Origin: a virus
IMG/VR virus record: IMGVR_UViG_3300044643_000612
Coordinates: 20,338-84,337 of that record
Length of the DNA stretch: 64,000 bases
Strand: one strand, 5' to 3'
Shown: in pieces, positions 21,013 through 44,500 of the stretch
Layout: the number at the start of each line of letters is the position of its first letter
How positions within the stretch are numbered: the first letter of the stretch is position 1
Translations under genes and position numbers: made by a program
Notes under the pieces: model-generated
What the model was told of the DNA's origin: nothing
The model's database searches: none
Seen by the model: the letters and a program-made list of their open reading frames with translations, nothing else

Positions 21013-22071
21013 TCAGTCCTCCTTCTTATAGCGATATGTCTCGAACCCCGCTGCGGCAAGGGGCAGGCCGACCGACCACTGGGTGCCCTGCGACATGAGC
21101 GCGGCCAGGCCCTGCGCGCTGAACGACACGTCGTCCGCCGTCTCGCAGAGGATCTCGTCGTGGACGTGCAGGACCGGGCTGTAGCCCGCCGCCTCCGCCG
21201 CGAGCAGGCCGGCGGCGAGGACGTCGCGAGCGACGGCCTGTGTCAGGTTCTCCACAAGTTTTCCACCGTATGTGTCCAGCCGCTCCCAGCGTCGGGTGTA
21301 TTGGTTGGTGCCCATGTAGGACAGGCGCCCGTCCTCGTCGACTTGCGGTGACGGGTAGCAGAGGTAGCGGCCTGATGGCAGGCGGGCGCGCAGCCAGCCG
21401 CCGGAGCGCCGGAAGGCAATGCTGCTGGCCCGGTAGACCTCGCCCGGGTTGCTGATGGCGTTGCGGGCGGCGCGCTCGCAGTCATACCAGAACTTGACCG
21501 TCGCCTTGTGCTTCGCGCGCCAAGCCTTGACGATCTCAAGCACTTTGGGTTCGGGCAGGTTGACGCCGTAGATCGCGCCCATAGCAGCGAACGCGCCTAT
21601 ACTGCCCTGAAAACCGCAAGCAAGCTCAGAAACTTTCCCGTTTACTTGCCGCTCGTCCTTGGTTACTTCACTCGGGTCCTTACCGAGGATGCCACCTGCT
21701 GTAATCTTGTAGATGTCGTGGCCTATACCTGCGTCGAAGTCTTTGAACGCCTCCAGCTTCCACTGCTCGCCGGCAAGCCACGCTAGGACCCGCCCCTCGA
21801 TGTTGGACAGGTCGGCCACGACCAGCTTGCACCCTGGCGCCGCGACGATAGACCCGCGCACCGCACTGGCGCACAACTCCATGACGTCGTCGTAGAACAC
21901 CGTCTCGACGCCCGCCTTCATGGCCTCGATGCCGAGGTCGATCTGCGGCTGCTTCAGGGTCGGTCGCGGCAGATTTTGGGGCTGGAAAATGCGCCCTGAG
22001 TTGGAGACGATGCGCCCGTTCGCCATGAAACGGTTGCGCGGGCCGGCGTTCACGATGTCATACGTCCGCAC
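21013..22071 (-). CDS. Family-A DNA polymerase C-terminal part, led by a 24-aa split-intein C-fragment (IntC)
   Basis: GTG at 22071 with SD CGGAGG 7 nt upstream. MRTYDIVNAGPRNRFMANGRIVSN|SGRIFQPQNLPR, followed by PolA motifs DLSNIEGR, KVSELACGF and HVHDE. Confidence 0.85.
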   Translation of the reverse strand: MRTYDIVNAGPRNRFMANGRIVSNSGRIFQPQNLPRPTLKQPQIDLGIEAMKAGVETVFYDDVMELCASAVRGSIVAAPGCKLVVADLSNIEGRVLAWLAGEQWKLEAFKDFDAGIGHDIYKITAGGILGKDPSEVTKDERQVNGKVSELACGFQGSIGAFAAMGAIYGVNLPEPKVLEIVKAWRAKHKATVKFWYDCERAARNAISNPGEVYRASSIAFRRSGGWLRARLPSGRYLCYPSPQVDEDGRLSYMGTNQYTRRWERLDTYGGKLVENLTQAVARDVLAAGLLAAEAAGYSPVLHVHDEILCETADDVSFSAQGLAALMSQGTQWSVGLPLAAAGFETYRYKKED

Positions 22072-22975
22072 TGGCGAGCCTCCGCTTGGCCGCCGCAGCC
22101 GCACGGCGCTGCGCCCCAACTTCGGCGCGACGCTCCGGCGTCCAGTAGGCGATGAGCGCCTCCTTCTGGCGCCGCTTCCGCTTATCGTGGTCAATGCGCT
22201 CCCGCGCCGCGGCAAGTTGTGACTGTCGTTCGGCACGCTGCTCGTCGGGCAGTTGAGCGTTGAAAGCCACCAGGCTCTCCGAGATTTTGACGCTCACGCC
22301 CGCGACCTGTTCAGGGGTGCGTGCGTCCCACACCTTCTTTGCCCGCGCGCGGGCCGCACGCCTGGCTTTCAACTTTTCAGACGGCGTGCGCTCCGCAAAG
22401 TGTTTCAAAAGCCGTTCACTCTGCGCCTTGCGGTCCTCGTCGGTCCACGCCTTGGGGTTTACGTTTTTGCGTTCGGCTTTCAAAGCCAGCCGCAGGTTCC
22501 GACGCGCTATGCGGTACGCCTCGCGCGGGTTGGCCAACCGCCAGTCTCGGGCTAGCGCCGAGAGTTCGGCGGCGTGTGCCTGATGCGCTTCACTCTCGCG
22601 GCAGCCCCGGGAAAGCGCCGCGCGGTAGGCGGCTTCCCACGCCGGGTCGCGGCGAAGTTCTGCGGTGGCCGAAACCCCTGCGGGGCCGTCAAACGCCCCT
22701 CCAGGTGACAGGTTGTACGGGCTGACCAGCGCCGCGATCTCTTCGATCTCGGCGACAAAAGCCTCCTCAAGCGTGTCGCATGTCCGCAAGACCTCGATGG
22801 TGAACGCCTGCGCGCCGTACTTGCGGATAGCCGCACAGAATGGGTGGTGCGCGCCCTTGGCCGCGCGCCGCACATGCTGCCCCCAGCGAACCTGTAGCGG
22901 TTGAGACGTGAGACCGGCGTAGCTGCGCCCGCTAGGACTGGTCAGCCGGTAAATCGTGTAGCGTTCCCTCTCCAT
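22058..22975 (-). CDS. GIY-YIG homing endonuclease
   Basis: TIYRLTSPSGRSYAGLT...RWGQH...AIRKYG...E...YN GIY-YIG core with a basic helical C-terminus. Overlaps both polymerase halves. Confidence 0.85.
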   Translation of the reverse strand: MERERYTIYRLTSPSGRSYAGLTSQPLQVRWGQHVRRAAKGAHHPFCAAIRKYGAQAFTIEVLRTCDTLEEAFVAEIEEIAALVSPYNLSPGGAFDGPAGVSATAELRRDPAWEAAYRAALSRGCRESEAHQAHAAELSALARDWRLANPREAYRIARRNLRLALKAERKNVNPKAWTDEDRKAQSERLLKHFAERTPSEKLKARRAARARAKKVWDARTPEQVAGVSVKISESLVAFNAQLPDEQRAERQSQLAAARERIDHDKRKRRQKEALIAYWTPERRAEVGAQRRAAAAAKRRLASADV

Positions 22976-24174
22976 AGGGGTAGCCCTCTCTGCTTTGCCT
23001 CTCCGAGGGTAACATGTTCTGAAGTTGAAACATACACTTTATGTTCAACCGTCGCACAAACCCCGTCGTGCGTAATCACAGGCTTGTCGCCGGAAAACAC
23101 CACGCCTTCGTGTCGAACCCACGACTCGCCGTCCCACACCAAGTCGTCGGTCGTGACGTCCTCTATGGGCCGCTCCAAGATGCGTCCAGTGTCGTCCTTG
23201 ACCCGGACAAGTGTGCCTTCCGCCAAGCAGAAACGCCCCGTGCGAGACGCCCCGGCGTACTGCATGGTGCCCCGCAGCCGCCCGTCGGACGAGGTGCCGC
23301 GCACCAGCACCCGGTACTTGGCCGGGCTGGTCGCGGCTGCTTGCAGGCGCACCTCCAGCAACTCGCGCACATCGTCCGGCACGTCGGTCTTGAGCAGGGC
23401 GCCCAGCGTGCCCTTGCGCAGGTCTTCAATCTCAAGGCCCATCGCCTCGCGCAGGTAGCCGATCAGGGCGTCCCGCTGCGTGGCGCTGGGCACGGCGCCG
23501 TCCGTCATGCGCGCCGACTCCACTGCTAGTCGCTGGCCCGCCTCCTTGGCGGCGCGCAGGGCGGCGTGGGCCAGGTCCATGTCGATCTGGATGCCGCGGT
23601 CGTTGATGGCTTGGTCCAGCCGCCACACGGCCTTCTCGGCGTCGGTCCAGTTGACCTTGGGCTGGCGAGCGTAGACCTCGCGCATGGCGACGATGTCCAT
23701 GCGGGCATATTCCTTGAACGCCTCCCACTCCGCCGGATGCGTCTCTTTCGTGGCCCGGCGGATCTTGCGCGTCTTGGCCTGCGGCTTGCAGAACAGTTGG
23801 ATCAGCTTCTTGCCCGCCTTGTCCTTGGCCTTGTCCAGCGGGACGCCGAGGACCTCGCACTGTTTATCAAGGGCGCCCGGCAGGCTGTGCAGCAGGCCCA
23901 CGGCGAGGGTGTCGTAGATGCGCTCAACGGGCACACGCACCTGACTGAACGACAGGACCGTGCGGTCGAAGTGGCTGTTGTGAATGATGATCCGGTCGGC
24001 AGCGTCGATGAGCGACTGCATCATGCCGGGGGCCGGGAACTCGACGACCTGGACCTCGTCGTCGTCCCATGCGTAGGCCAGCAGCAGGATCTCCGCGCTC
24101 TCCGCATAGGCCCATGTGCCATGCGTGATCGGCGTCTCGCTGTAGGTTTCGAGGTCGAGCATGAGTGTGCGCAT
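22942..24174 (-). CDS. Family-A DNA polymerase N-terminal part (3'-5' exonuclease) ending in a 95-aa split-intein N-fragment (IntN)
   Basis: DLETYS, HNSHFDR and YARMD exonuclease motifs. ...ASRTGRF|CLAEGTLV...TVEH (intein blocks A and B, C1 codon at 23227-23229), then TGA. Confidence 0.85.
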   Translation of the reverse strand: MRTLMLDLETYSETPITHGTWAYAESAEILLLAYAWDDDEVQVVEFPAPGMMQSLIDAADRIIIHNSHFDRTVLSFSQVRVPVERIYDTLAVGLLHSLPGALDKQCEVLGVPLDKAKDKAGKKLIQLFCKPQAKTRKIRRATKETHPAEWEAFKEYARMDIVAMREVYARQPKVNWTDAEKAVWRLDQAINDRGIQIDMDLAHAALRAAKEAGQRLAVESARMTDGAVPSATQRDALIGYLREAMGLEIEDLRKGTLGALLKTDVPDDVRELLEVRLQAAATSPAKYRVLVRGTSSDGRLRGTMQYAGASRTGRFCLAEGTLVRVKDDTGRILERPIEDVTTDDLVWDGESWVRHEGVVFSGDKPVITHDGVCATVEHKVYVSTSEHVTLGEAKQRGLPLWRGNATRFTG

Positions 24175-24185
24175 GGCAAGGGGTG

Positions 24186-24222
24186 AGGGGCAGGACGGCA
24201 GGAGAAGGACCGCCCTGCCCCT
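24186..24222. other. Inverted repeat between gapR and the polymerase gene
   Basis: GAGGGGCAGG...CCTGCCCCTC 10-bp stem. No clear U-tract. Confidence 0.4.
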
Positions 24223-24231
24223 CTGGCTTCG

Positions 24232-24492
24232 CTAGATCAGATCAGCGCAGCCAAGCGCGTTGGCGTAGAGTTCGAGCATGGCCCGCTCCTCCATCGCCTT
24301 GTCGCGGTCCTTCTTGCGAAGGGCCACGATCTTGCGGAGGGTCTTGGTGTCGAAGCCGTTGCCTTTGGCCTCGGCGTAGACCTCCTTGATGCCCGCGGCG
24401 ACCTCGCTCTTTTCCTCTTCAAGACGCTCAACGCGCTCGATGATGGATTGGAGTTGGCTCGCCGCGACGGAGTTGTGACCCAGGTCCGACAT
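24232..24492 (-). CDS. gapR: GapR / DUF2312 (UPF0335) nucleoid-associated protein
   Basis: [16 protein letters not shown]...[26 protein letters not shown]...LELY signature. Confidence 0.9.
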
Positions 24493-25046
24493 CAGACGAA
24501 GTCCTCCTCGTCGTCCGCGTCGAACTCGTCAGCCGAAGCTGCCGTCGACCCGCCGAAGCCCTCGCCGTCAGCGTAGAACTTCACGCCGCGAAGCACGGCG
24601 TTGATGCGCCGGCCCCACTTCGGGCTGTCGTAGGCGTAGATCTCGACGCTGGCGTGGACGTAGCAGCCAGCGTAGATGACCCCGTCGGCTTCCGTGACCG
24701 GCTGGCCCTGACGGTCCAGAGCGGTCGGGCGCAGCTTCTCGGAGCGGGTGGACAGGAAGAAGTTGCCCTCGAAGCCGTCCCACGTGTCGCCGTCCTTGGT
24801 CGTGTACGGCCCTTCGACCCATGCCGACCGCTGGTCAGCCTTGAGTTTCTTGACGATGTCGTCCGCCTTCGGACCCCACTTCTCCTTGGCCGACGCTGAG
24901 ATGGCCTCGCGGATCGCCGCCACGTTGGGGGAGGCGGGGTCGATGATCAGCTTGGCGCCGTAGGCGGGGTTGTTGTCGCCGAAGGCTTGGGCCTTGAAGA
25001 CCGCCGGGAAGGCCAGGCGGACGTTACGCAGTTGCAGAATGGTCAT
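24492..25046 (-). CDS. DUF2815 single-stranded DNA-binding protein
   Basis: NVRLAFP, IYAGCYV and DGEGFGG motifs, and an acidic tail ending DDEEDFV. Confidence 0.85.
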
Positions 25047-25071
25047 GTCGCATGTCTCTCGTTTCAGGTTT

Positions 25072-26265
25072 CTAGTCGAAGTCCGCCGCCGTGGCCCCGA
25101 GGGACAACGCCGGCTTCTTATCCGTGGCCGGGGCCACCGATGGCTTGCCCGGGGACCGCGTGACCAGAGCGTTGATGCGCTGGAGGCGGGCTGGGCTGTG
25201 CTTGAGCAACTTCTCCGCAACCGTCGGAGAAATCAAGTCGTATTCGTACATCTCGCTGTTCTTGAAGCGCCAGGACTTCAGCAGCTTGGCGACGTCGTCC
25301 GGGTTGGACCACTTGCGGTTGCCCATCCGGCCCTCGACCAGCTTGTAGCCGGGCACGTCAGCGCCCGCGAACAGGCGCCGCTCAATCTCGCCGCGCACGG
25401 CCTTGCACCAGTCCTCGATCAGCCCGACCTTCATCATCGCGCCGGCGAGCCACTCGGGATCCACGTTGGCCAGCGTGCCAACGAACGCCTCATCCACGTC
25501 GTCGAAGTCCTCCGCCGTCGCGCCGGTGATGGTGTCCAGCACCTCGTCCTTGAGCGCCGGGCAGACGAAGCGGGCATCGCAGAACCGGCACTGCTTCTCG
25601 CCGGGGTCGTAGGTCTGGTCGCCTGCCAGGATGCCCTGCACGACCTCCTTGGTGCTACTGGCGAAGGCCATCAGGTCGTCATGCGACAGGCTCCACCGGC
25701 TGACCGGGTTGCCGTTCTGCGCCCTCGGCTGGTGGATGATCAGGTCGAACTGCTCGAAGGGTCCGAGGAAGTCGAAACTGTGCATGGCGCCAAGGGCGTA
25801 GAGCATGAGTTGCTCGTTGGCCTCGGCGTTGACCAGCACACCCGACCCGTACTTGTAGTCGATCATGGTCAGTCTGCCTTCGGCCACGACGATGGCGTCC
25901 GCCGTGCCGAAGGCGTCGGGCGCCCCGATGTAAGGCGAGAAATCCACGCGCTGGTCGGCGAAGGCCCGGCCATCCTCGCCCATGGCCTCAAGAACCAGGT
26001 CGCGGAAGGCAAGGCCCCCTTCGATCATGGCGTCGGTGACGGGCCAGTCGGTGTCGTCAACCCGCACGGTGGTGCCGCGCAGGTTGGCGAACGCCTCGTT
26101 GCCGCCCCAGTCCTCCAGCACGATGCGGTTCGCCACGTCATGCGCGGCGGTGCCCTCGTCGGCGTAGACTGAGGTGCGCGGCGGGACCGTGTCGCACAGG
26201 GCGAGCGACCCGGGGCAGCGCAGCCAGCGGTGGGCAGCAGAGGGGGAGAAGCGAGCGTGTTGCAT
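25072..26265 (-). CDS. DUF2800 Cas4/PD-(D/E)XK-like exonuclease
   Basis: HARFSPSAAHRWLRCPGS, EGTAAH, FGTAD, IDYKYG, QLMLYALG and CRFC...CP motifs. Confidence 0.85.
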   Translation of the reverse strand: MQHARFSPSAAHRWLRCPGSLALCDTVPPRTSVYADEGTAAHDVANRIVLEDWGGNEAFANLRGTTVRVDDTDWPVTDAMIEGGLAFRDLVLEAMGEDGRAFADQRVDFSPYIGAPDAFGTADAIVVAEGRLTMIDYKYGSGVLVNAEANEQLMLYALGAMHSFDFLGPFEQFDLIIHQPRAQNGNPVSRWSLSHDDLMAFASSTKEVVQGILAGDQTYDPGEKQCRFCDARFVCPALKDEVLDTITGATAEDFDDVDEAFVGTLANVDPEWLAGAMMKVGLIEDWCKAVRGEIERRLFAGADVPGYKLVEGRMGNRKWSNPDDVAKLLKSWRFKNSEMYEYDLISPTVAEKLLKHSPARLQRINALVTRSPGKPSVAPATDKKPALSLGATAADFD

Positions 26266-26456
26266 CAGCCGCACTCCTCCTGCGCCATCTCGTAGCCGTA
26301 GACCAGGTCGCTGAAGATGCGGCCCACCATGTCGGTGTCGTCCATGCTGCCTGAGCGGATCGGACGGGCCATCAGGTTGGCGTGCGACTTGGACAGCCGC
26401 GACAGGGCGCGCTCCCTGGCCAAGACGCGCAGACGCTGCTCGATGTCGGGTGCCAT
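26265..26456 (-). CDS. Hypothetical protein
   Basis: Stop/start overlaps with both neighbours. Confidence 0.5.
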   Translation of the reverse strand: MAPDIEQRLRVLARERALSRLSKSHANLMARPIRSGSMDDTDMVGRIFSDLVYGYEMAQEECG

Positions 26457-27348: not shown

Positions 27349-29358
27349 TCACGCACAAAATTGCACGACGCCATGCTCCAGCATCAGCGGGGCGTCGTCG
27401 CCCTTCTGCAAGCTGCGAACTGCGCGCATCACGCTCTGCCGCCGGATGTCGCGGGCGCCCTCCTCGGGTGCCGGCACCGTGCCCACCACGTAGTCCAGCA
27501 GCCGGTCCATGCCCATGCTGGTGACGCTGGGCTCCAAGAGGCCGATGGCGTCCATCACCACCTGCTCCCACGCCCCCAGCCGCCGCTTGGCCGTCGGCTT
27601 CTGCGCCACCGGCACCGTAGCGTCCCGCACCACAAGGCTGCTCATCTCCTCGCCGTCACGGTCGAGGCCGACCACCACAGGCTCCAGGGTGAACCCCCAC
27701 GACAGGTCGTCCCTGCCGTCCTTCTGCTTGCTGACCCGCATCACGCGCACAGGCCCCTCGTCGGGCCGCATGACCTCGAACTCGACGTCCGCGGCGGCGC
27801 GGATCCCGCTCCAGCCCCGCGCACCCCGCGCCGCGTCCTTGCCGCTGTGATGGACCAGCAGCACCATGGCGCCGGTCGCATCGCGGATAGCGCGGGCGTG
27901 ACGCAGGGCCAGGCCCATGTCCTCGCCGCTGTTCTCGTTCGCGCCGGGCGTCACCTGTGCGAAGGTGTCGACCACCACCAGGTCGGTCGGACCCGCAGCG
28001 GCCATGGCCTCGACCACGGCGGTGATGTCCTCCTCAATCAGGAAGTTGGGGACCGCGTTCATGATGCCAAGCGGCACGCCGTCGAGGCTCAGGCCTTGGT
28101 CAAGGGCATATGCCTTGACACGAGACGCCACGCCCCCGCCGCCTTCAGCCGCGACATAGAGCACCGCGCCCTGCTTGACGGGCCGTCCGCGCCAGTCCGT
28201 CCCGCGCGCCACGGCCAGGGCCATGTCCAGCACGGCGAAGGACTTGCCGCTGCCGCTCGCGCCGTAGAGCACGCCGAGGTCGGCCCGGGGCAGGACGCCC
28301 TTGATGATCCACTCCGGTGGCTCGCGCATCATGTAGTCGCTGGCGGCGACGAAGGGGAAGCGGCCCGGGTAGCCCGGCGGCGTGGCGTAAGAGGCCGACG
28401 GCTCGGCGACCTGCACCTTCTCCGCCAGCCGCTCCAGCCGCTCGGACGGGTTCTGCGCCTCGCGCGCCTCGCGGGCCATCTTGATGACCGACGCCATGGT
28501 GACCTGGCGGCCCGTGGCCTGCCGGCGGGTGAACGAGTCCCATTGCGCCTGTAGCTGGTCGCTGCCGGGGTATTGCTCGCCGTCGCTGGACCACTCGTCC
28601 CACAGGTCGAACCCGTCGCCCTCGGTCTCGTGGTGCAGGGCCATGCCGACGCGGATCCAGTCGTCGCGACCCATGCTGGCGTCGAGGTCGGCCAGCAGCG
28701 CCTTGATCTCGGTCTCGGCCAGGCCAAGGGTGGGCTCGTGCCCGACCATGAAGTCGTCGGGGTCGCTCGGGCTTGAGGTCTGCGGGCCGAACCGCGCCTC
28801 GCAGAAGGCCCGCAGCTTAGGGGTGACGGGCGCCACCACGTCGCCGGTGTCGAACAGGTCCACGGTATAGAGCGGGTTGCCTGTGACGGTGACGAAGCCG
28901 GAAGCGGTGAATGTCTCCACGCCATAGCGGTCGGCGATGGCGCGGCTCTTGCGGTCGCCCAGCGCCCCGGCCACGAAGGCCCGGACGCCCTTGCCGCTCG
29001 GGCTGTATTCCGCATAGGTGTCGCAGACCAGCGCCTCCAGTTCGGCAGGCAGGTGGCCTTGCGCGTCTACGCAGGCGTCGAAGTCCAGCGCCGTGATGCC
29101 CCAGTCGGCGAGCATGGCCAGACCCACACCGTCCATGCCGCGGGCCTTGGCGCGCTCCAGGGCGCGCTCCAGTGGCACGAGGGAAGCGCGGTCTCGGGCG
29201 TCGCCCTGCCGGCCATAGCGCCTGCCGGCATTGGCGTAGTAAGGCACCTTGATGGCCTTGCCAGAGCCCTCGATGCGCTCATACCGCCAGCACAGCCAGC
29301 CGGGCAGGTCGCGCAAGAGCGAGGGGACGGCGAGGCCCGGAGTCGGGCCAGCCATCAC
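27349..29358 (-). CDS. Primase-helicase (AEP primase, PriCT-2, AAA_25 RecA-like helicase)
   Basis: LDFD and YAEYSPSGKG (AEP), WIRVGMALH...WDEWS (PriCT-2), GASGSGKS, VVDT, VHHSGKD and RGWS (AAA_25). Confidence 0.9.
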   Translation of the reverse strand: MMAGPTPGLAVPSLLRDLPGWLCWRYERIEGSGKAIKVPYYANAGRRYGRQGDARDRASLVPLERALERAKARGMDGVGLAMLADWGITALDFDACVDAQGHLPAELEALVCDTYAEYSPSGKGVRAFVAGALGDRKSRAIADRYGVETFTASGFVTVTGNPLYTVDLFDTGDVVAPVTPKLRAFCEARFGPQTSSPSDPDDFMVGHEPTLGLAETEIKALLADLDASMGRDDWIRVGMALHHETEGDGFDLWDEWSSDGEQYPGSDQLQAQWDSFTRRQATGRQVTMASVIKMAREAREAQNPSERLERLAEKVQVAEPSASYATPPGYPGRFPFVAASDYMMREPPEWIIKGVLPRADLGVLYGASGSGKSFAVLDMALAVARGTDWRGRPVKQGAVLYVAAEGGGGVASRVKAYALDQGLSLDGVPLGIMNAVPNFLIEEDITAVVEAMAAAGPTDLVVVDTFAQVTPGANENSGEDMGLALRHARAIRDATGAMVLLVHHSGKDAARGARGWSGIRAAADVEFEVMRPDEGPVRVMRVSKQKDGRDDLSWGFTLEPVVVGLDRDGEEMSSLVVRDATVPVAQKPTAKRRLGAWEQVVMDAIGLLEPSVTSMGMDRLLDYVVGTVPAPEEGARDIRRQSVMRAVRSLQKGDDAPLMLEHGVVQFCA

Positions 29359-31114: not shown

Positions 31115-31311
31115 TGCGTCCCTCGCATGTTGCGGTGGGCTTCCAGCGTCCGGCGGGCGAACGAGGCAAGCACGGTGTCAGGTAGGGCATCGGCCAGGGT
31201 GTAGAGGCTGGCAGACAGTCCGCGCCCGATGTCGCCGAACGTCTCGGCCTCCTCGATAGCGTGGATCAGGTCGGCCCGGGCAGGGATGCGCGGGGGTGGG
31301 TGGAGCATCAT
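31111..31311 (-). CDS. Hypothetical protein
   Basis: ATGA overlaps at both ends. Confidence 0.5.
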   Translation of the reverse strand: MMLHPPPRIPARADLIHAIEEAETFGDIGRGLSASLYTLADALPDTVLASFARRTLEAHRNMRGTQ

Positions 31312-32009
31312 GCGCCCGCCCTCCGCTCGAAGAACTCCAGAATGTCCAGCGTCTCGCGGGCATTAACTGTGCCGGGGTATTCGGCGGCGACGTGGGCGCG
31401 ATATTCGGGGATCGTCAACCAACGACAACCGGCCATGATCTTGTGCGAGCCGTCCGTCAGTCGGAACAGGTGGAAGGTGTATCCGTCCATGCGCTCGGCG
31501 GCGGCGATAAGAGTGGCAAGAGTGTCCTCTTCGTATTTGGCATCGCGCAGGTTGGCATCGCGCAGGTTGGCACCGCGCAGGTTGGCACGGCTCAGGTAGG
31601 CACCGCGCAGGTCGGCACCGCTCAGGTCGGCACCGCGCAGGTCGGCACCGCTCAGGTTGGCACCGCTCAGGTCGGCACCGCTCAGGTTGGCACCGCGCAG
31701 GTAGGCACCGCGCAGGTCGGCACCGCGCAGGTCGGCACCGCGCAGGTAGGCACCGCTCAGGTCGGCACCGCGCAGGTCGGCACCGCTCAGGTCGGCACCG
31801 CTCAGGTTGGCACCGCGCAGGTTGGCACCGCGCAGGTCGGCACCGCGCAGGTAGGCACCGCTCAGGTCGGCACCGCGCAGGTCGGCACCGCTCAGGTCGG
31901 CACCGCTCAGGTAGGCACCGCGCAGGTTGGCACGGCTCAGGTAGGCACCGCGCAGGGTTCCGCCGTTCGCCCATGCGACGGCGGCGAGGTAGGTTATGTG
32001 CTTGTTCAC
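31308..32009 (-). CDS. Pentapeptide repeat protein
   Basis: About 28 L-(R/S)-(G/R/D)-A-(D/N/Y) units. SD GGAGGT before GTG at 32009. C-terminal MAGCRWLTI domain. Confidence 0.9.
   Translation of the reverse strand: MNKHITYLAAVAWANGGTLRGAYLSRANLRGAYLSGADLSGADLRGADLSGAYLRGADLRGANLRGANLSGADLSGADLRGADLSGAYLRGADLRGADLRGAYLRGANLSGADLSGANLSGADLRGADLSGADLRGAYLSRANLRGANLRDANLRDAKYEEDTLATLIAAAERMDGYTFHLFRLTDGSHKIMAGCRWLTIPEYRAHVAAEYPGTVNARETLDILEFFERRAGA
31536..31955 (-). repeat. 15-bp tandem repeat array encoding pentapeptide repeats
   Basis: About 28 copies of GTNGGCACCGC(G/T)CAG-like units on the + strand. Confidence 0.9.
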
Positions 32010-32109
32010 AGCGCACCTCCGATAGCGGCTAGGGCAATCAGCAGCCATGCCAGCGCGGTGAACGCGGCGGCGGTTAGGATGGCCTCTGCGGCGAGGCGGA
32101 TGAGGCGGG

Positions 32110-33563: not shown

Positions 33564-33568
33564 GGCGA

Positions 33569-38658: not shown

Positions 38659-38873
38659 AGCTGTCTGAAATCCTGCTCACGATCGCCTTCTTTCCCGCCG
38701 GGGCGGCCTTCATCGCGTGGCTTTTGGTCGAGGCGGCCTTCGCGTGGAGGCTTGTTTGGCCCCGGCTGTTCACTTGCGGGCGGTTGAACTCCGACGGCTG
38801 GATGGCTGTCGCGATGCTCGCGACCCTCGCGCTTGCTGTGCTGGGCGCCACCCTTCGACACTTTGGGGCCTAA
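38655..38873 (+). CDS. Small membrane protein
   Basis: Two hydrophobic segments. ATGA overlap. Confidence 0.55.
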   Translation: MKLSEILLTIAFFPAGAAFIAWLLVEAAFAWRLVWPRLFTCGRLNSDGWMAVAMLATLALAVLGATLRHFGA

Positions 38874-38949
38874 CCCATGACCGACCGCAACTGGCCAATG
38901 GTGGCCGGTTACGCACCTTTGAGGCCGACAAGTGGCCTGGAGAGACAAC

Positions 38950-39288
38950 ATGACTGAATGGATCAAGCACGACGGCGGACCCCAGCCGGTCGCGGATGAT
39001 GTGTGGGTAGAGTGCGCTCCCTTCACAGGGGGTCAGGCCGAGGCTCTCAAGGCCGGTGTTGATCCGAGCCTGTGGAATTACAAGTTTTTCTACCGCATCC
39101 TCAACCAGCACCTGATCGACGCCGCCCGCATAGAAGGCATCCGGGATGGGCTAGAGGCTGCACATATGGCCATTGGCAAGGAACTGAACGACAAGACGCC
39201 ATTGGAAGTGGCCGCTACAATTATGCGGGCGGAGATAACGATTGTGGAACTAGACCCCGAGACCATCGCAAAGGAGACTGCACGATGA
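38950..39288 (+). CDS. Hypothetical protein (WIKHDGGPQPV domain)
   Basis: N-terminus is related to the domain in 38185..38658. Confidence 0.6.
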   Translation: MTEWIKHDGGPQPVADDVWVECAPFTGGQAEALKAGVDPSLWNYKFFYRILNQHLIDAARIEGIRDGLEAAHMAIGKELNDKTPLEVAATIMRAEITIVELDPETIAKETAR

Positions 39289-39752
39289 CTGAACCCGACG
39301 AGGCCCTGCTATGGGCGAGGGGGCAAACCGACGCACCCAGCCTACACCTTGTGTTGGGGCAAACCGAGACACCCGGCCTACACCTTATTATGGCCCACGG
39401 CTACCGCGCCGGGCAGGCCGCATCCGCCGAGAGGATCAAGGCGCTGGAGGAGGCTCTGGCGAAGGCGAACAAGCCCGAATGGTTCTATGGCGACCATGAG
39501 GCGTCTCCCGCCGACTCTGTGGATGAAGTCATTGAGGAAGCCCTTGAATGGGGCCTTCTCGGAGAGGCGGAACCGGGCCACATAGAAGTGTTTCAGATCA
39601 ACACGGCCCGCCCCTGCGCAACCGTTTGGGCCGTTGTTCGCATTCTCACAGTGGATGAGCGCGAGGCCCGCGACGACGGCTTTCTGTTTGACGTGACGGA
39701 GTGCGCCACGGAAGCCGAAGCCGAGGCCCTGCTCAAGGAGGCTGACCAGTGA
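39285..39752 (+). CDS. Hypothetical cassette protein
   Basis: RIKALEEAL module. Ends LLKEADQ. Confidence 0.6.
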   Translation: MTEPDEALLWARGQTDAPSLHLVLGQTETPGLHLIMAHGYRAGQAASAERIKALEEALAKANKPEWFYGDHEASPADSVDEVIEEALEWGLLGEAEPGHIEVFQINTARPCATVWAVVRILTVDEREARDDGFLFDVTECATEAEAEALLKEADQ

Positions 39753-40012
39753 GTGATGATATTTTTGACCGGGCGCTGGATCGACGGAATGCCCTTATTA
39801 AAGAGCAACGCCGCAGGATCAAGGCGCTGGAGGAGGCTTTGCGGGGGCTGGCAAGCGCATCCACTGAGAGGATCGGGGCGCTGGAGGAGGCGTTGCGGGA
39901 AGTGATCGAAGATTACGATTGGGTCCAAGGCGGACCCGGTGATCGAGATTGGAACGTCCTCGACAACACCATAATTCGCGCCCGCAATCTGCTCAAGGAG
40001 GCTGACCAGTGA
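39749..40012 (+). CDS. Hypothetical cassette protein
   Basis: GTG start inside the boundary motif. Two RIxALEEALR modules. Ends LLKEADQ. Confidence 0.6.
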   Translation: MSDDIFDRALDRRNALIKEQRRRIKALEEALRGLASASTERIGALEEALREVIEDYDWVQGGPGDRDWNVLDNTIIRARNLLKEADQ

Positions 40013-40188
40013 AGATTTCTATTCGTCTCTCACAAACAGCACTGCCGATAACGATTAACAATGTAGTCAACACCAACACCAAGGGGCTATTCTACTGCGT
40101 TTATACAGAAGACGGAATCGTTCGGAAGTTTCCAATAATAACAATCTTCGACGTAACTGAGGGTTACAAGGAGGCTGCCAGTGAGTGA
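40009..40188 (+). CDS. Small AT-rich cassette protein
   Basis: Open frame MKISIRLSQ...GYKEAASE between two boundary motifs. Confidence 0.5.
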   Translation: MKISIRLSQTALPITINNVVNTNTKGLFYCVYTEDGIVRKFPIITIFDVTEGYKEAASE

Positions 40189-40336
40189 CGATGAACGCAT
40201 TGAGGCACTGGAGGAGGAACTGGCTGTCGCGCTTATGCAAGTGAGCCTGTGGGCGCAGGCGCGGAGATATCAAATCGGCGGAATACCGACTACCGACGCC
40301 TTCCGGGCCCCGCGCTCTGCTCAATGAGGCTGACCA

Positions 40337-40687
40337 GTGAACAGCGCGAACTTAAGGATGGCGGTTATCACTTACAACGCCACGCTTCTTAACCAGTCAC
40401 AGGACAGTCGCGACCAACCCGCCGCTATGCGCGCCGCGCTTGCCCCGTTTCTTGAGCGCATCAAGCAACTAGAGGGCGAAAACGCAGAGTTAAAAGATTG
40501 GCGACGCAGGGCCGAAAAGATGATGTCCGTCATGAAGGCAAATGCAATCGACAACATCAACTCTCGGGCGCGGCCCCTGACCGGATTTGTTTCCACCTTG
40601 ACCGCAGAACAGAAGGAAGCGGCGATGTCGTATGAAGGTGACGACCACCACGGACCCGAGACCACCGCCAAGGAGGCTGACCAGTGA
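40337..40687 (+). CDS. Hypothetical cassette protein
   Basis: GTG start in the boundary motif. ERIKQLE module. Ends AKEADQ. Confidence 0.6.
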   Translation: MNSANLRMAVITYNATLLNQSQDSRDQPAAMRAALAPFLERIKQLEGENAELKDWRRRAEKMMSVMKANAIDNINSRARPLTGFVSTLTAEQKEAAMSYEGDDHHGPETTAKEADQ

Positions 40688-40727
40688 GGCTAATGGTTGG
40701 GCGCACGACACGAAAGGACCCTTGGTC

Positions 40728-40907
40728 ATGATGATTTCTCAAGAGACCTGCCTGCTGCTCATGCTCGTTATCGGCATGATATCTACTCTGGGTTTTCAAT
40801 GGTGGCCTGACTGGACAAAAGTGCAGCGGCGGCTGTCCATCTTGTGGATTGTGTTCTGGCTTGGCCCGCCTCTGTATTTCGTCTGGACCAAAGGAGTGCT
40901 GGGATGA
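40728..40907 (+). CDS. Small membrane protein
   Basis: Two hydrophobic helices. Confidence 0.5.
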   Translation: MMISQETCLLLMLVIGMISTLGFQWWPDWTKVQRRLSILWIVFWLGPPLYFVWTKGVLG

Positions 40908-41077
40908 CCTATCCGCCCGAACTGCAAGCCTACTACGACGCCCACGACCGAATGATGAATCAGGAGCGGACCGCAGATCAATTGGCGTGGTGGCCTGTCC
41001 AATACGGCTACTACAAGGTCGCCCGATACAACGCTGTCAAGGCTGGCTATCTGCCCGAGACGCCGGAGTTTGGCTAA
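40904..41077 (+). CDS. Hypothetical protein
   Basis: SD AAGGAG. ATGA overlap. Confidence 0.5.
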   Translation: MTYPPELQAYYDAHDRMMNQERTADQLAWWPVQYGYYKVARYNAVKAGYLPETPEFG

Positions 41078-41271
41078 TGGTTGGGCGCACGACGTGGACG
41101 GAAGAACAGCACGCTAAGGTGGTGGAGCTGTGGGAGGCGGGGCATACCGCTGCCGAGATAGGTAAAGAGATGGGCAAGACCCGGAACGCCATCCTCGGAC
41201 ACGTTAACCGGAGAGGTATTAGCCGTAACGGAGCCCTCCAGTCGTGGTGGAGGAAGCCGGATGAAGGTTAA
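41077..41271 (+). CDS. Short GcrA-like protein (N-terminal HTH only)
   Basis: WTEEQ...LWEAGHTAAEIG...TRNAILG..NRRGI. Lacks the Cys-rich C-domain. Confidence 0.75.
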   Translation: MVGRTTWTEEQHAKVVELWEAGHTAAEIGKEMGKTRNAILGHVNRRGISRNGALQSWWRKPDEG

Positions 41272-41509
41272 GGAGGTTCACGCCGGGAGACTGTACCGGG
41301 TAAAAAAGACTAAACTTAGCGAGTATGATTTCGTAAAGGGCGGCGGACATCTGTGGGTAGCAGAAGAGTCTGGAAACCTAATGTCGGGGAACGTTTACGT
41401 CGCAAAGGCCTACTTGTTTCGTTCTGTGGCTACTGGAGTAGTCATTCGCGCGAACGGAATACTTTTTGACTCTCTTGGGCTGGAGGAAGCCGATGGCGGC
41501 GACACCTGA
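41261..41509 (+). CDS. Hypothetical protein
   Basis: SD GGAGG. In the operon chain. Confidence 0.5.
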   Translation: MKVKEVHAGRLYRVKKTKLSEYDFVKGGGHLWVAEESGNLMSGNVYVAKAYLFRSVATGVVIRANGILFDSLGLEEADGGDT

Positions 41510-41801
41510 GAAGAAGGTTAAGGCCCGGGTGGAGGCCATGCTCAAGGCGAAGGGGGTTTACTATTTCTTCCCGGCTACGCATGGTTACGGGCGGAGCGGA
41601 GTCCCTGACATCATCGCCTGCGACCGGGGACGGTTCCTCGCCATAGAGTGCAAGGCTGCGGGGGGTAAGCTTACGGCGCTACAGGAGCGGGAGATTACCC
41701 GTATTAGAGTAGAAGGCGGCGTGGCACTCGTCATCCACGAAGACAACTTCCACGAGTTAGAGCAAGCGTTAGAGCAAGCGCTGGAGTATACATGCCTTTA
41801 A
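41493..41801 (+). CDS. VRR-NUC domain nuclease
   Basis: TPEKKVK, SGVPDII, IECKA and LQ motifs. Confidence 0.85.
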   Translation: MAATPEKKVKARVEAMLKAKGVYYFFPATHGYGRSGVPDIIACDRGRFLAIECKAAGGKLTALQEREITRIRVEGGVALVIHEDNFHELEQALEQALEYTCL

Positions 41802-44500
41802 TTGTCTGCGATTTCGAAACATATTACGACTCCGACTTCAGCCTGTCTAAGATGACGACGGAGGAATACATCCGAAGTCCTCGGTTTGAGGTGATCGGCG
41901 TAAGTGTAAAGGTGGATAGCGAGCCGCCCCGGTGGTTCTCCGGTACCATGCCTGACATTCAGAAGTGGCTCCTGCGCTTCCCGTGGGAAACCTCCATCGC
42001 CGTGGCGCACAACGCTGCCTTCGACATGGCCATCCTGAACTGGAGTTTTGGCATTATCCCGGCGAGGATCGCGGACACGCTCTCTATGGCTAGGGCGATA
42101 GACGGACCGGATGCAGGCAACAGCCTCGCCAAGCTGGCAGAGCGCCACGGTCTCGGGGCCAAGGGCAACGAGGTTATCAACGCGCTAGGCAAACGCCGAC
42201 TGGATTTCTCCACGGCACAGCTGGCGGCTTACGGCGAGTACTGCTGCAACGACGCCGACCTGACCTACGACCTGTTCCAGAAGCAAGTGGCGGGCTTCCC
42301 GCTAAGCGAGCTCCGGGTGATCGACCTAACCATACGCATGTTCACCGAGCCGGTACTGCGACTGAGCCAACCGGTGTTGGACGGCCACCTCACTGAGGTG
42401 CTGGACCGCAAGGCGAAACTTCTCGATGGGTTAGGCGTCTCCACCGAAGCCCTTATGAGCAACGACAAGCTGGCTAAGGTCCTTGCAGACCTAGGTGTGG
42501 AGCCCCCGACTAAGACCAGCCCCACCACGGGCAAAGTGGCTTGGGCCTTCGCTAAGAACGACGAGGGGTTTAAGGCCCTACTGGAACATGAGGACGAGCG
42601 CGTCCAAGCCATTGTGGCTGCGCGGCTAGGGATCAAGTCCACGTTGGAGGAGACCCGGACCGAGCGGTTCATCGACATCTCCAAGCGCGGGACCCTGCCC
42701 GTACCCCTACGCTACTACGCAGCTCACACGGGGCGCTGGGGTGGCGACGACAAGATCAACCTCCAGAACCTGCCGCGCAAATCCCCACTCAAGAAATCCA
42801 TGCGCGCGCCCAAGGGGTTCCTGTTGGTGGACTGCGACTCCAGCCAGATTGAAGCGCGGACCCTAGCTTGGCTGGCCGGACAAGACGACCTTGTCCAGTT
42901 CTTCGAGAAGAACAACGCCGAGATCGCGGCGGGCGTTGCCAAGGCGGACATGCAGTTCGACCCCTACAAGATCATGGCCTCCGGCATCTACGGGGTACCT
43001 GTGTCGGAGGTGACGGACGACATGCGCTTCGTAGGCAAGACAACTATACTGGGTTGTATTGCCGAGGGAACCCCGGTACTAACTGATCGCGGCTGGGTAG
43101 CGATTGAGGAGGTAACTACCTCTGACCGGCTGTGGGACGGAGAGGAGTGGGTATGCCACCAAGGGCTAGTGCAGAAAGGCACCAAAGAAACGTTGAGTCT
43201 TTGCGGGCTTTGGTTGACGCCGGATCACAAAGTGTTGTGCGGGACCCAGTGGCTGCAAGCGCACTCAGTGGTTCAAGACAGAAATACCCTCTCCCAAGCG
43301 TTGGATACAGGAGCGGTCAGCTGGTTGTGTCCGGATACGTCAAAGGGCCAAGGAGAGGGGTACTATCCATCATCGTGCGGTGCGACTGCGGGTTCCCAGA
43401 ATACACCGTTGATAGGCACAACTTCAAGGACTTCAAAAGCACCCGATGCCCCCTCTGCGGTAGACGGGAAGGACACCGAAAACGTTATTGGAAGTATATA
43501 TCGGCGCTCCCCGACACTGCGCACCGAGAGCGACTGCTCAACCGACTATCGGCTGCTATCAGCCGCTGCCACGCACCCAATAACCGGATGTACGCAGACT
43601 ACGGAGGTAGGGGTATCGCAGTATACAAACAGTGGAGAGCTGACCGCGCCGAGTTCCTACGGTACGTCCAAACAGTGTCCGGGTGGGACAACCCAGAGTT
43701 CGATATGGACCGTACAGACAACAACCGGGGGTATGAACCCGGAAACATCCGGTTTGTCTCTAGGGCGGAAAACCACGCCAACCGAAGAAAGGTCAGCATT
43801 CTCCAGACGGAACTTGATGACCTACGACATCGCCTACGCCGGGCCGAGGAACAGATACACAGTTGCGACGGATGCCGGTCCAATTATCGTTCATAACTGT
43901 GGCTACGGCATGGGAGCAGCGAAGTTCCAAGGCCAGCTCAAAAACTTCAACGTGGATATGGACCTTGAGGAGTGTAAGCGGATCATCACTGTGTACCGAC
44001 GCACCTACCCGCGCATCGTGGAGTTCTGGGACAAGGCCGACATGGCACTGGAAGCCATGATGCAGGGGATGACCGCCCCTCTGGACGACCACGGGGTTTT
44101 GCTCGTTGGGAAGGACAACTCCATCCGGCTGCCGAACTCCCTGCTTCTCCGCTACGACAATCTCCGTAAGTGGGTGGACCCCAAGGATGGCAAGACGCGG
44201 ACCATCTACGACACCAAGAAGGGCAAGAGCATTGTGCCCAAGTCCACTTGGGGCGGCGCGGTCACGGAAAACGTCTGTCAGGCGGTGGCTAGGATCATCA
44301 TCGCGTGGCAGATGCTGAAGATCGCGGAGAAGTACAAGGTCGCCATGACCGTCCACGACAGCGTGGTCGCCGTGGTTCCGGAAGCCGAGGCCGACGAGGC
44401 CCGCAAGTATATAGAGACGTGTATGCAAGCCCGCCCACCGTGGGCTAAGGGCTTGCCCCTTAACTGTGAGAGCAAGATGGGAGAGACCTATGGCGGATGA
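41792..44500 (+). CDS. Family-A DNA polymerase containing a 281-aa intein in motif B
   Basis: DFETYY, HNAAFD, TGRW, NLQNLP, DSSQIEAR, KTTILG|intein|CGYG and VHD motifs. Confidence 0.92.
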   Translation: MPLIVCDFETYYDSDFSLSKMTTEEYIRSPRFEVIGVSVKVDSEPPRWFSGTMPDIQKWLLRFPWETSIAVAHNAAFDMAILNWSFGIIPARIADTLSMARAIDGPDAGNSLAKLAERHGLGAKGNEVINALGKRRLDFSTAQLAAYGEYCCNDADLTYDLFQKQVAGFPLSELRVIDLTIRMFTEPVLRLSQPVLDGHLTEVLDRKAKLLDGLGVSTEALMSNDKLAKVLADLGVEPPTKTSPTTGKVAWAFAKNDEGFKALLEHEDERVQAIVAARLGIKSTLEETRTERFIDISKRGTLPVPLRYYAAHTGRWGGDDKINLQNLPRKSPLKKSMRAPKGFLLVDCDSSQIEARTLAWLAGQDDLVQFFEKNNAEIAAGVAKADMQFDPYKIMASGIYGVPVSEVTDDMRFVGKTTILGCIAEGTPVLTDRGWVAIEEVTTSDRLWDGEEWVCHQGLVQKGTKETLSLCGLWLTPDHKVLCGTQWLQAHSVVQDRNTLSQALDTGAVSWLCPDTSKGQGEGYYPSSCGATAGSQNTPLIGTTSRTSKAPDAPSAVDGKDTENVIGSIYRRSPTLRTESDCSTDYRLLSAAATHPITGCTQTTEVGVSQYTNSGELTAPSSYGTSKQCPGGTTQSSIWTVQTTTGGMNPETSGLSLGRKTTPTEERSAFSRRNLMTYDIAYAGPRNRYTVATDAGPIIVHNCGYGMGAAKFQGQLKNFNVDMDLEECKRIITVYRRTYPRIVEFWDKADMALEAMMQGMTAPLDDHGVLLVGKDNSIRLPNSLLLRYDNLRKWVDPKDGKTRTIYDTKKGKSIVPKSTWGGAVTENVCQAVARIIIAWQMLKIAEKYKVAMTVHDSVVAVVPEAEADEARKYIETCMQARPPWAKGLPLNCESKMGETYGG
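43055..43897 (+). mobile_element. Contiguous intein (C1...HN, +1 Cys)
   Basis: CIAEGT block A, TPDH block B, TYDI...IIVHN blocks F/G. Removing it restores KTTILGCGYG. Confidence 0.9.
43153..43896 (+). CDS. HNH-type homing endonuclease overprinted in an alternative frame within the intein
   Basis: VRCDCG, CPLC, RCH.P....Y..YGGRGI and DRTDNNRGYEPGNIRF....N..NRR motifs. SD GAGGAG 5 nt before ATG 43153 (alternative start GTG 43249). Confidence 0.8.
   Translation: MPPRASAERHQRNVESLRALVDAGSQSVVRDPVAASALSGSRQKYPLPSVGYRSGQLVVSGYVKGPRRGVLSIIVRCDCGFPEYTVDRHNFKDFKSTRCPLCGRREGHRKRYWKYISALPDTAHRERLLNRLSAAISRCHAPNNRMYADYGGRGIAVYKQWRADRAEFLRYVQTVSGWDNPEFDMDRTDNNRGYEPGNIRFVSRAENHANRRKVSILQTELDDLRHRLRRAEEQIHSCDGCRSNYRS

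Follow-up and report, generated by a model that had tools for sequence, protein, structure and literature searches.

The stretch of DNA analysed here (the window) comprises 64,000 nucleotides (nt), bases 20338-84337 of a single 84,337-bp viral contig (IMG/VR record IMGVR_UViG_3300044643_000612), and it encodes two family-A DNA polymerases (PolA), here called polymerases A and B, each interrupted by an intein of the same family. We consider it probable that polymerase A is a fractured gene carrying a mobile trans-splicing cassette, that the intein of polymerase B is contiguous and dual-coded, and that the two are cousins, not stages of a local history. Both layouts, an intein split around a nuclease gene and a whole intein with an out-of-frame nuclease, are already known kinds; what we describe is a family that holds the two side by side.

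A first-pass annotation of the window had proposed that the two polymerase inteins are homologous, that they occupy different sites, and that they host different nucleases which overlap intein codons out of frame. These statements held up. The N-terminal parts of the two inteins are 45% identical over 69 amino acids (aa), with an expectation value (E) of 6e-13, far beyond chance, and their common signature, Cys1 together with the T and H of block B, is invariant in all eight aligned members. The intein of A is found at TGRF/S and that of B in motif B at ILG/C, where the slash marks a splice junction. The nuclease of A belongs to the GIY-YIG family and overlaps both intein halves at its ends, and that of B is an HNH-like protein nested within the intein.

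Polymerase A is split around a GIY-YIG gene

The polymerase A locus consists of three adjacent genes, all on the minus strand. The first ends in the N-terminal part of the intein (IntN), the second encodes an endonuclease, and the third (21013-22071) opens with the C-terminal part (IntC). The features, in window coordinates, are as follows.

22942..24174, minus strand: first gene of polymerase A, read from its open reading frame (ORF) and translation; 3'-5' exonuclease and family-A polymerase N-part to ...GASRTGRF, then N-intein and stop
22945..23229, minus strand: N-intein of A, 95 aa, starting CLAEGT, with Cys1 and block B TVEH; intein hidden Markov model (HMM) score 125 bits
22058..22975, minus strand: free-standing GIY-YIG gene, 305 aa, between the intein halves, in a frame different from that of IntN
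22000..22071, minus strand: C-intein of A, 24 aa, GTG start at 22071 lying 7 nt past GGAGG, ending ...IVSN/S
21013..21999, minus strand: C-extein of polymerase A, SGRIFQPQNLPRP... to the stop; PF00476 E 1.9e-11, phrog_17 E 4.6e-63

The first gene, like the C-extein, matches the DNA polymerase family phrog_17 (E 6.4e-43). When the two exteins are joined (GASRTGRF plus SGRIFQPQNLPRP, that is, TGRF-SGRIFQPQNLP), they match the uninterrupted motif of P45 of phage APSE-1. The motif-B site of polymerase A (GKVSELA/CGFQGS), which corresponds to the insertion point in B, is unoccupied. Past the N-intein, the polymerase frame meets seven stops until it reopens. The ATG of the GIY-YIG gene (22975) lies within the last 11 codons of IntN, the two ORFs overlapping by 34 nt, and its stop overlaps the start of IntC by 14 nt. 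The GIY-YIG assignment passes the Pfam cut-off (PF01541, E 4.5e-5, residues 6-78; 24.1 bits where 22.6 are required) and is matched by a phrog_314 homing endonuclease hit (E 1.6e-12); with PF01541, the corresponding ORFs of two relatives reach 37.5 bits (L008) and 28.6 bits (L026). The predicted fold over the Shine-Dalgarno (SD) sequence and ATG of the GIY-YIG gene has an energy of -26.1 kcal/mol (z -2.0), a value equalled by 5 of 200 shuffles.

The C-intein and its junction read (V/M)RTYDIVNAGPRNRFMANGRIVSN/SGRIFQPQNLP. The penultimate intein residue is Ser (SN/S), and the terminal Asn and the following nucleophile are both present. At the insertion site of A, called site a below, the SN/S ending is common to 12 loci, and L008 ends HN/C. 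The C-intein start codon lies exactly 24 codons ahead of the junction in 11 of 13 site-a loci. A docking model of IntN with IntC gave an ipSAE score of 0.82, against 0.02 for the best control, with at least 94% of the contacts common to the runs and a partner model confidence (pLDDT) of at least 77. For calibration, 78 solved complexes and 108 mismatched pairs were scored, and 51 and 2 of them, respectively, reached the mark. The score may reflect likeness to split-intein complexes that have already been solved, and does not show binding. Taking sequence and model together, it is most likely that the two halves of polymerase A are made separately and rejoined by protein trans-splicing. The C-parts of the natural split inteins DnaE, gp41-1, NrdJ-1 and IMPDH-1 are about 35-41 aa long, and a short, naturally evolved C-intein of 24 aa is attractive for peptide semisynthesis.

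Polymerase A could instead be a dead gene, broken by nuclease insertion without repair by splicing, with replication left to polymerase B or to the host. A complete second polymerase gene on the same contig, the Ser in place of His at the penultimate intein position, and the indirect nature of the case for splicing all speak for this. We regard it as very improbable nonetheless: both halves are intact ORFs with conserved catalytic blocks, the intein halves are conserved better than the extein across 108 protein clusters, the IntC start codon has been kept in nearly all site-a loci, and the docking model passes its controls. Moreover, many relatives have the split gene with no second polymerase seen within the fetched stretches.

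Movement of the split cassette

The clearest evidence on the history of polymerase A comes from its comparison with a related locus, L007. Nucleotide identity is 56-70% over the N-extein, rises to 89-99% from the first intein codon, stays at 80-99% over the GIY-YIG gene and the C-intein, and is back to 62-79% within about 90 nt past the junction, so that the boundaries are sharp and coincide with the intein ends. Overall, the cassette is 86-99% identical in the two loci and the flanking polymerase DNA 56-70%. The same contrast is seen in proteins: the N-intein of cluster P0001 is 99% identical to that of A, and its N-extein 53%. Among 36 cluster pairs whose N-inteins are at least 85% identical, the N-extein is the less similar part in 34; the gap is at least 20 points in 15 of these pairs and reaches 29-46 points in five. 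A milder contrast is seen between B and L082, with 74-92% for the intein and 48-78% for the exteins.

Judged by these identities, the IntN-GIY-IntC cassette has been transferred whole between divergent polymerase genes and arrived ready-made. Because the cassette is so much more similar to that of L007 than its flanks are, A was not formed in place. We suggest that the element at TGRF/S acts as a three-part cassette, made up of the N-intein with its stop, the GIY-YIG gene, and an SD/GTG start with the 24-aa C-intein. The GIY-YIG enzyme most likely cuts intein-less polymerase alleles, and the cut alleles would be repaired by copying in the whole cassette as one unit, which would leave the gene fractured on arrival and its protein halves to be rejoined by trans-splicing. 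Movement of the whole cassette means that genes are broken at the moment it arrives.

Polymerase B carries a contiguous intein with a nested reading frame

Polymerase B lies on the other strand and has its intein at a different position. The relevant features are these.

41792..44500, plus strand: polymerase B precursor, 902 aa; PF00476 E 2.7e-25, PF01612 E 3.3e-7; one contiguous intein
43055..43897, plus strand: intein of B, 281 aa, GKTTILG/CIAEGT...HN/CGYGMG; intein HMM score 94 bits
43153..43896 (open from 43132), plus strand: nested HNH-like (I-HmuI-type) ORF, 247 aa from its ATG, in the +2 frame
43139..43155, plus strand: likely ribosome-binding site and start of the nested ORF, GGAGAGGAG, 5-nt spacer, ATG at 43153; DNA of the intein motif WDGEEWVC
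43334..43798, plus strand: polymerase-frame filler, intein residues 94-248, rich in Ser, Thr and Gly, stop-free, protein not conserved

The intein of B has Cys1, a block B TPDH and the C-terminal end ...TYDIAYAGPRNRYTVATDAGPIIVHN/CGYGMG (...IIVHN/C). Its insertion point, GKTTILG/CGYGMG, is what we take to be motif B of Pol I enzymes. The joined exteins (GKTTILG plus CGYGMG) match the uninterrupted GKVSELACGFQGS of polymerase A, and the motif of polymerase B that corresponds to the insertion site in A (HTGRWGGDDKINLQNLP) is itself unoccupied. We infer that this intein splices in cis.

About 90% of the intein DNA is covered by the nested ORF, whose signals are built from conserved intein codons. 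Its stop, a TAA, falls within the terminal His-Asn codons of the intein, an overlap seen in 21 of 66 members of the class with a +2 offset. In the +2-class loci listed, the DNA behind WDGEEWVC (TGG GAY GGR GAR GAR TGG GTA TGC) contains a stretch rich in purines and an ATG, and several of these loci have a stop codon just 5' of the nested ATG, so that nested translation must start at this point. Among the best database matches to the nested ORF, many have a length of exactly 247 aa. In B, translation of the nested ORF probably starts from the internal SD/ATG within the WDGEEWVC codons.

Evidence for dual coding

Four lines of evidence agree that the DNA of the B intein serves two proteins: codon shuffles, the positions of substitutions, structural models of both frames and the conserved start signals. 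In 3000 synonymous-codon shuffles of the nested ORF of B, the polymerase frame was never open, with a mean of 6.55 stops, and the third frame across the same ORF has 16 stops. The same test on seven relatives left the frame open in 0-2.1% of the shuffles (0/3000 for L004, L005 and L037, 1/3000 for L001, 9/3000 for L021, 18/3000 for L013 and 64/3000 for L003).

Substitutions were counted by codon position in 11 pairs of relatives, of which only the pair B-L021 includes the window's own intein. Over the N part (first 255 nt), third positions of the polymerase frame take the most substitutions in 10 of the 11 pairs, the remaining pair being tied with only 2 differences. Over the middle part, third positions of the nested frame take the most in all 11 (for example, counts of 14/84/22 in L021-L022 and 108/34/32 in L037-L042). 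The last 72 nt of the intein have too few changes for a judgement. AlphaFold models follow the same division: in the polymerase frame, intein residues 1-93 and 249-281 reach a pLDDT of 82-93, and residues 94-248 have a pLDDT of 24-42 and no secondary structure. The nested ORF is modelled with a pLDDT of 84-95 over residues ~45-220 and has a strand-strand-helix element at 183-237. We conclude that B is dual-coded; its ends are selected as an intein and its middle as a nuclease, and the polymerase frame in the middle is merely a disordered linker free of stops.

Two simpler accounts of the nested frame were considered. An in-frame HNH domain displaced by sequencing errors was rejected in view of the same offset in 65 and 13 loci and the consistent codon-position pattern. 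That the +1 and +2 nested forms are mere indel variants of one another is unlikely, since the host frame is rarely open by chance and the HNH subfamilies differ.

Nature of the nested protein

The nested ORF of B matches phrog_374, annotated as HNH endonuclease, with an E of 5e-28 from residue ~50. In Pfam it has no match, to any HNH family or otherwise, at E up to 0.1, and a search of NCBIfam gave none. When the nested ORF of the window is aligned with those of 13 other loci, the 14 sequences have in common CxCG...C, RC, YGxRGI and LDRxD...Y.PGN.R...N..N.R, and no histidine is invariant. The sole match of the resulting profile in the PDB is weak (E 0.079). It is to I-HmuI (1U3E), an intron-encoded HNH nicking endonuclease, and falls on the beta-beta-alpha-metal motif with D, N and N aligned; the zinc-ribbon (CxCG...CxxC) and YGxRGI modules of the nested ORFs lie outside it. 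At the position of the I-HmuI general-base His, all 14 members have Arg (Asp-Arg for Asp-His). The model has strands at 183-187 and 199-203 and a helix from 204. With this model, Foldseek returned nothing at E up to 0.001 (best match 0.19), and a wide VIA-align search gave Z up to 5.1, mostly on the long C-terminal helix. In view of the Arg-for-His replacement, the absence of a Pfam match and the fold searches without a usable match, we call the protein HNH-like and its activity putative.

The nested family is widespread, with 688 matching phage records. Its free-standing annotated HNH homologues occur in Bacillus phage W.Ph., Staphylococcus Kayvirus, Pseudomonas phage phi_D3 and Synechococcus phage ACG-2014f, and the hidden ORF in the methylase of Pacc40 is a further homologue (tblastn, 29% identity over 63% of the query).

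It could be argued that the nested ORF is not an independent gene, and that it is either expressed as a frameshift fusion from the polymerase frame or is a non-cutting, DNA-binding or maturase-like relic. The general-base Arg and the missing Pfam HNH match fit such a view, as does the fact that the first 43 residues are not confidently folded in the model; for hidden HNH genes, Arsenault et al. 2025 (PMC11855218) reportedly treat translation as an open question. We nevertheless think this unlikely. A strong SD and ATG are kept at one spot, with a stop just upstream in several relatives; the frame is under strong purifying selection; the inteins of relatives are 74-92% alike and their exteins 48-78%; and the same protein family includes free-standing annotated HNH genes in many phages.

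A family of polymerase inteins

We surveyed the family by fetching loci with two queries: 19 IMG/VR and 19 genome loci were obtained with the N-intein of A, and 80 of 237 confirmed IMG/VR loci with an alignment of the B clade. All were passed through one pipeline, and the tally below refers to the 119 inteins for which both ends were found, 42 from the first set and 77 from the second. By tblastn, the B intein matches 192 phage records, in 166 of which a single place covers at least 80% of the query, and the N-intein of A matches 194. The matches range over Jerseyvirus (145 Salmonella phages), SO-1, EP23, APSE-1 to -7, Streptococcus Javan phages, and phages of Gardnerella, Ruminococcus, Caulobacter and others. 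A protein search with the N-intein of A gave the 108 clusters mentioned above, of 225-718 aa, most of them ~410-430 aa long with the N-intein at the end; P0107 has a contiguous mini-intein at the A site.

The inteins of A and B belong to one large family specialised on phage PolA genes, with a small splicing core made up of ~95 N-terminal and ~24 C-terminal residues. Its PolA sites are TGR(x)/S (site a), TGRWGG/S (a2), GK(x)/C(E/I/Q)LxLxY (b1), GKxxxxx/CGYG (b2, the site of B), YGGK(x)/CEN (c) and YGGKxxEN/C (c2). The first-pass annotation had called for architecture, frame offset and nuclease family to be tabulated, and the table brings mini, dual-coded and split inteins together in one family at five or more PolA sites. 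The host frame is stop-free in 102 of the 119 inteins, which we call contiguous; 16 are split and one (L044) is frameshifted. A same-strand nested HNH-like ORF is present in 93 of the 102 contiguous inteins, offset by +2 in 78 and by +1 in 15. Eight others are mini-inteins of 354-546 nt, some with HNH remnants, and one has a weak HNH match only. No GIY-YIG gene is found in any of the 102 contiguous inteins; this nuclease is confined to split inteins of site a.

Each of the 13 site-a loci is split. Nine have a full-length GIY-YIG ORF and two (L027 and L039) have remnants. At these loci IntN and IntC are in the same frame six times, offset by +1 four times and offset by +2 three times; the ratio becomes 4:4:3 when the near-duplicates (polymerase A of the window with L007, and L035 with L036) are collapsed. 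The common frame of the two halves in A, which the first-pass annotation had seen as fitting its model at a one-in-three chance probability, is therefore a matter of chance; random frames are among the outcomes which that annotation had named as refuting it. Three split inteins carry an HNH ORF: L046 and L047 at site a2, which are clearly diverged from each other, and L018 at site c2. In L018 the HNH stop overlaps the ATG of IntC, and what sets it apart from the contiguous L107 at the same site is a shift of one base, located after the N-intein and ahead of the HNH core. L018 comes from one metagenomic contig only, in which the shift is possibly an assembly error. Five polymerases (L007, L028, L030, L046 and L047) hold two inteins of the family, of which the one at b2 is contiguous and the one at a or a2 is split. 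A second N-intein is present in L035 too, the end of that intein not being located.

Several members depart from these patterns. In L030 the gap between the intein halves (3820-4578, minus strand) holds an antisense DUF3800 gene (E 1.6e-12) instead of GIY-YIG, and in L032 (3731-4543, plus strand) a Bro-N/ANT KilAC gene (E 6.8e-30). The gap thus seems to accept other cargo. Seven protein clusters (P0090, P0096, P0098, P0099, P0101, P0102 and P0106) have a GIY-YIG domain fused in frame after the N-intein (...LWKGKPAYEIYRLTSPSG...), an arrangement in which the nuclease would be a tail on the N-half of the polymerase. In L044, from the chromosome of Eubacterium plexicaudatum ASF492, the polymerase frame of the intein is broken by a frameshift, and at L047:3072-3839 the nested HNH ORF has an internal stop with the polymerase frame still open. 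The N-intein flanks of L023, L024, L025, L101, L112 and L121 are unlike the PolA sites (e.g., NFPKGKHDDL/C and TKPEVVCT/C), and on the strength of these flanks the intein family may be present in other host genes too.

Trees and the history of the family

Two intein trees were made, a careful one of 41 inteins over 110 columns and a quick one of 70 inteins over 106 columns. Both divide the family into two super-clades (support 96/92 and 98), with A and B on different sides; the two inteins, though members of one family, are not ancestor and descendant. Besides L018, the super-clade of B contains the +2 HNH inteins of b1 and b2 and the +1 inteins of c and c2, among which several mini-inteins are nested. 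In the other, a Firmicutes b2 clade with +1 HNH ORFs, with two mini-inteins nested in it, is sister to the split clade. Within the split clade, the a2/HNH pair L046 and L047 is sister to the a/GIY-YIG inteins (SH-aLRT 90), and the mini-intein of P0107 falls, weakly supported, inside the site-a clade. The split inteins of site a form an old, monophyletic group.

The HNH tree (47 rows, quick search) agrees with the intein trees. It unites every +2 ORF in a single clade (98) and makes the HNH of the a2 split inteins the sister of the +1 HNH from the Firmicutes clade (83). ORFs from site c fall together with the hidden ORF of Pacc40 and five HNH genes that are free-standing (96). Since free-standing HNH genes interleave with nested ones, more than one capture is likely, and the topology suggests that the family captured HNH genes at least two or three separate times. 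This favours the first-pass proposal of repeated invasion by nuclease genes as far as HNH is concerned; for GIY-YIG the proposal finds nothing among the contiguous inteins, so that a dual-coded GIY-YIG stage is unsupported. From the two congruent trees, the ancestor of the second super-clade was probably HNH-bearing, with one daughter lineage contiguous and the other split, and GIY-YIG would have replaced HNH in the site-a branch. The split GIY-YIG clade would then go back to a dual-coded ancestor with HNH, its nuclease gene having been replaced after the intein had split with HNH still in place. On the B side, the DNA of a presumably cis-splicing intein would also code for an HNH-like homing endonuclease, from the internal SD/ATG to the TAA within the His-Asn codons.

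Two parts of an earlier model, in which a dual-coded intein becomes a split one, have to be kept apart. The general order of events fits, with the split clade nested among dual-coded clades and a sister split lineage that keeps HNH. Its application to A itself does not, as A was not formed in place. Such a local origin, from a B-like dual-coded intein, would have had a nuclease gene invade a mini-intein out of frame, stops accumulate in the intein frame, and an internal start rescue the C-half, with the shared frame of IntN and IntC left as a relic. That IntN and IntC of A do lie in one frame, that mini, dual-coded and split forms all occur within the family, and that L018, set beside L107, resembles a dual-coded intein disrupted by a single-nucleotide shift can be cited for it. 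We hold it to be distinctly unlikely, given the random frames at site a (6:4:3), the 102 contiguous inteins without a GIY-YIG gene, the transfer of the cassette as a whole, and the age and monophyly of the site-a split clade. A 1-nt assembly error in the single contig of L018 would look identical to such a break.

Several observations weigh against the account we favour, of a mobile trans-splicing cassette in A and a dual-coded cousin in B. The C-intein of A ends in Ser-Asn instead of His-Asn and is only 24 aa long, and the hairpin at the start of the GIY-YIG gene has only a slight advantage over shuffles. Conservation is generally higher in the intein than in the exonuclease domain, and moderate gaps in identity need not mean transfer. 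The nested nuclease goes unrecognised by Pfam, has Arg for the general-base His throughout its alignment, and found no usable match in either fold search. The loci were gathered with A or B-clade queries and include near-duplicates, and so are not independent samples. Finally, the intein trees are unrooted, with some 106-110 columns and many open forks, and the HNH tree is a quick search with only six free-standing or hidden sequences.

A bolder combined reading is one that we put forward tentatively, as somewhat less than an even prospect. In it, the ancestor was an overlapped pair of splicing domain and nuclease gene, in which WDGEEWVC doubled as the ribosome-binding site and start of the nuclease and the terminal His-Asn codons as its stop. 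One branch would have split, swapped HNH for GIY-YIG and, in places, for unrelated cargo, and would now spread as a gene-fracturing cassette whose broken polymerase is repaired with a naturally very short C-intein of 24 residues. If this were true, gene fission would come from the homing of a ready-made split intein and not from the decay of a resident one. With mini, dual-coded and split forms (the last with HNH, GIY-YIG or other cargo) at neighbouring PolA sites, the family offers a rare natural series on the origin of split inteins. We believe that this family-wide series is worth the attention of specialists; the concepts themselves are unchanged.

Relation to known systems

Fractured genes, in which a free-standing homing endonuclease gene lies between the halves of a split intein, were described by Dassa et al. 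in 2009 (PMC2677866), and polymerase A resembles them closely. In these systems, as in A, the genes are adjacent and on the same strand, IntN ends the first and IntC opens the second, with a free-standing GIY-YIG gene between them, and they are of phage origin with a DNA-synthesis enzyme as host. The 3' end of the nuclease gene overlaps the start of IntC by 6-69 bp in 15 loci, compared with 14 nt in A. There are also differences from what is set out there. The host gene of A is a family-A polymerase, whereas those of PMC2677866 are gp41, IMPDH, DnaE, NrdA, NrdJ, ligase and terminase; the IntC of A is only 24 aa, unlike those of the fractured genes; the nuclease gene of A starts within the end of IntN and not after an untranslated hairpin; and in A the whole cassette moves between divergent hosts, whereas the model of PMC2677866 has a nuclease invading a resident intein. 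That gene-breaking model is in essence the idea of the first-pass annotation, so the general model had already been published, there and in a recent preprint (bioRxiv 10.1101/2025.01.02.630785).

The intein of B has its counterparts in the non-canonical inteins of Gosselin, Arsenault & Gogarten (the same preprint) and of Phillips et al. (bioRxiv 10.64898/2026.09.14.751524), in which the homing endonuclease lies in a separate frame; both preprints cite Gorbalenya 1998. In those inteins, as in B, the host frame is contiguous and open, the nuclease occupies another frame of the intein middle, and purifying selection switches to the nuclease frame. The preprints propose that such inteins arise when a free-standing nuclease invades a mini-intein, an event that would more often yield a split intein, and DNA polymerase is named as one host. 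The nucleases described there are endonuclease VII-like (same strand), LAGLIDADG and Vsr-like (antisense or +2), in actinobacteriophage or cyanobacterial genes, whereas that of B is I-HmuI-like. B differs further in lying in PolA of phages of Proteobacteria and Firmicutes, in a nested ORF that takes up ~90% of the intein, and in start and stop signals drawn from conserved intein codons. The hidden HNH elements in phage methylases (ShiLan domain, Pacc40; PMC11855218) are also in-frame, stop-free insertions with an other-frame HNH ORF ending TAAC, and they are reported to be without detectable splicing domains, whereas B has a complete, confidently modelled Hint core.

In GenBank, nested out-of-frame HNH genes are annotated in APSE-1 (P46 in P45) and in Sodalis phage SO-1 (gp39 in gp38), and Jerseyvirus phages have an "intein-containing DNA polymerase precursor". 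SO-1, APSE-1 and Ent2 have the same intein and nested HNH family as B, and SO-1 and Ent2 also have its +2 offset. The SO-1 record calls the element a type I intron, and the Ent2 record annotates the intein with its splicing domains only. The sites differ from that of B, being GKA/CELGLGYG in SO-1 and Ent2 and YGGKS/CEN in APSE-1. The APSE-1 genome was reportedly described by van der Wilk in 1999. In the main texts of open-access papers and bioRxiv preprints we found no paper on a split PolA intein with GIY-YIG, nor one on the nested HNH of the APSE, Jersey and SO-1 polymerase inteins; PMC3185647 and PMC8425127 touch briefly on inteins or APSE-1. For annotation, the nested ORF is present in ~190 deposited phage genomes and is unannotated in most of the records.

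The contig and its other genes

The contig encodes phage structural genes and two replication modules, complete but divergent, that lie back to back; a family-A polymerase, a primase and a phrog_62 helicase are present in both.

18623-20119, minus strand: helicase of the first module, which also contains polymerase A
27349-29358, minus strand: primase of the first module
47448-48992, plus strand: helicase of the second module, which also contains polymerase B
50652-53495, plus strand: primase of the second module

A scan of the whole contig (84,337 bp) found two inteins, one HNH ORF and one GIY-YIG ORF, and no further ones. The contig could be one genome, a pair of tandem prophages or a chimeric assembly. 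That polymerases A and B come from two different phages, as tandem prophages or through chimeric assembly, with two inteins of the same family together by coincidence, is a serious possibility that we place slightly below even. The presence of two complete modules is in its favour, as is the G+C content, which is 0.62-0.69 up to ~40 kb of the window and 0.55-0.60 at 40-56 kb (a step from ~0.65 to ~0.58). If true, it would leave the identity of each intein element unchanged.

Three further observations concern other genes of the window. An ORF of 2316 aa (53775-60725, minus strand) matches phrog_10089, "DarB-like antirestriction", over its C-terminal third (E 3e-28). The ORF at 31308-32048 (minus strand) consists almost entirely of pentapeptide-like repeats (A[ND]L[RS]GA[DY]LSG...), its other strand being a long GTAQV repeat, and to judge by these repeats it may encode a protein of the DNA-mimic type. 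Each replication module has a small ORF, at 20262-20702 (minus strand) and ~41080-41271 (plus strand), and the two have in common the N-terminal motif W(T/D)...LW.EG.(S/T)AAEI...G.TRN...G...R.G, which resembles GcrA-like regulators and makes both ORFs candidates for that group.

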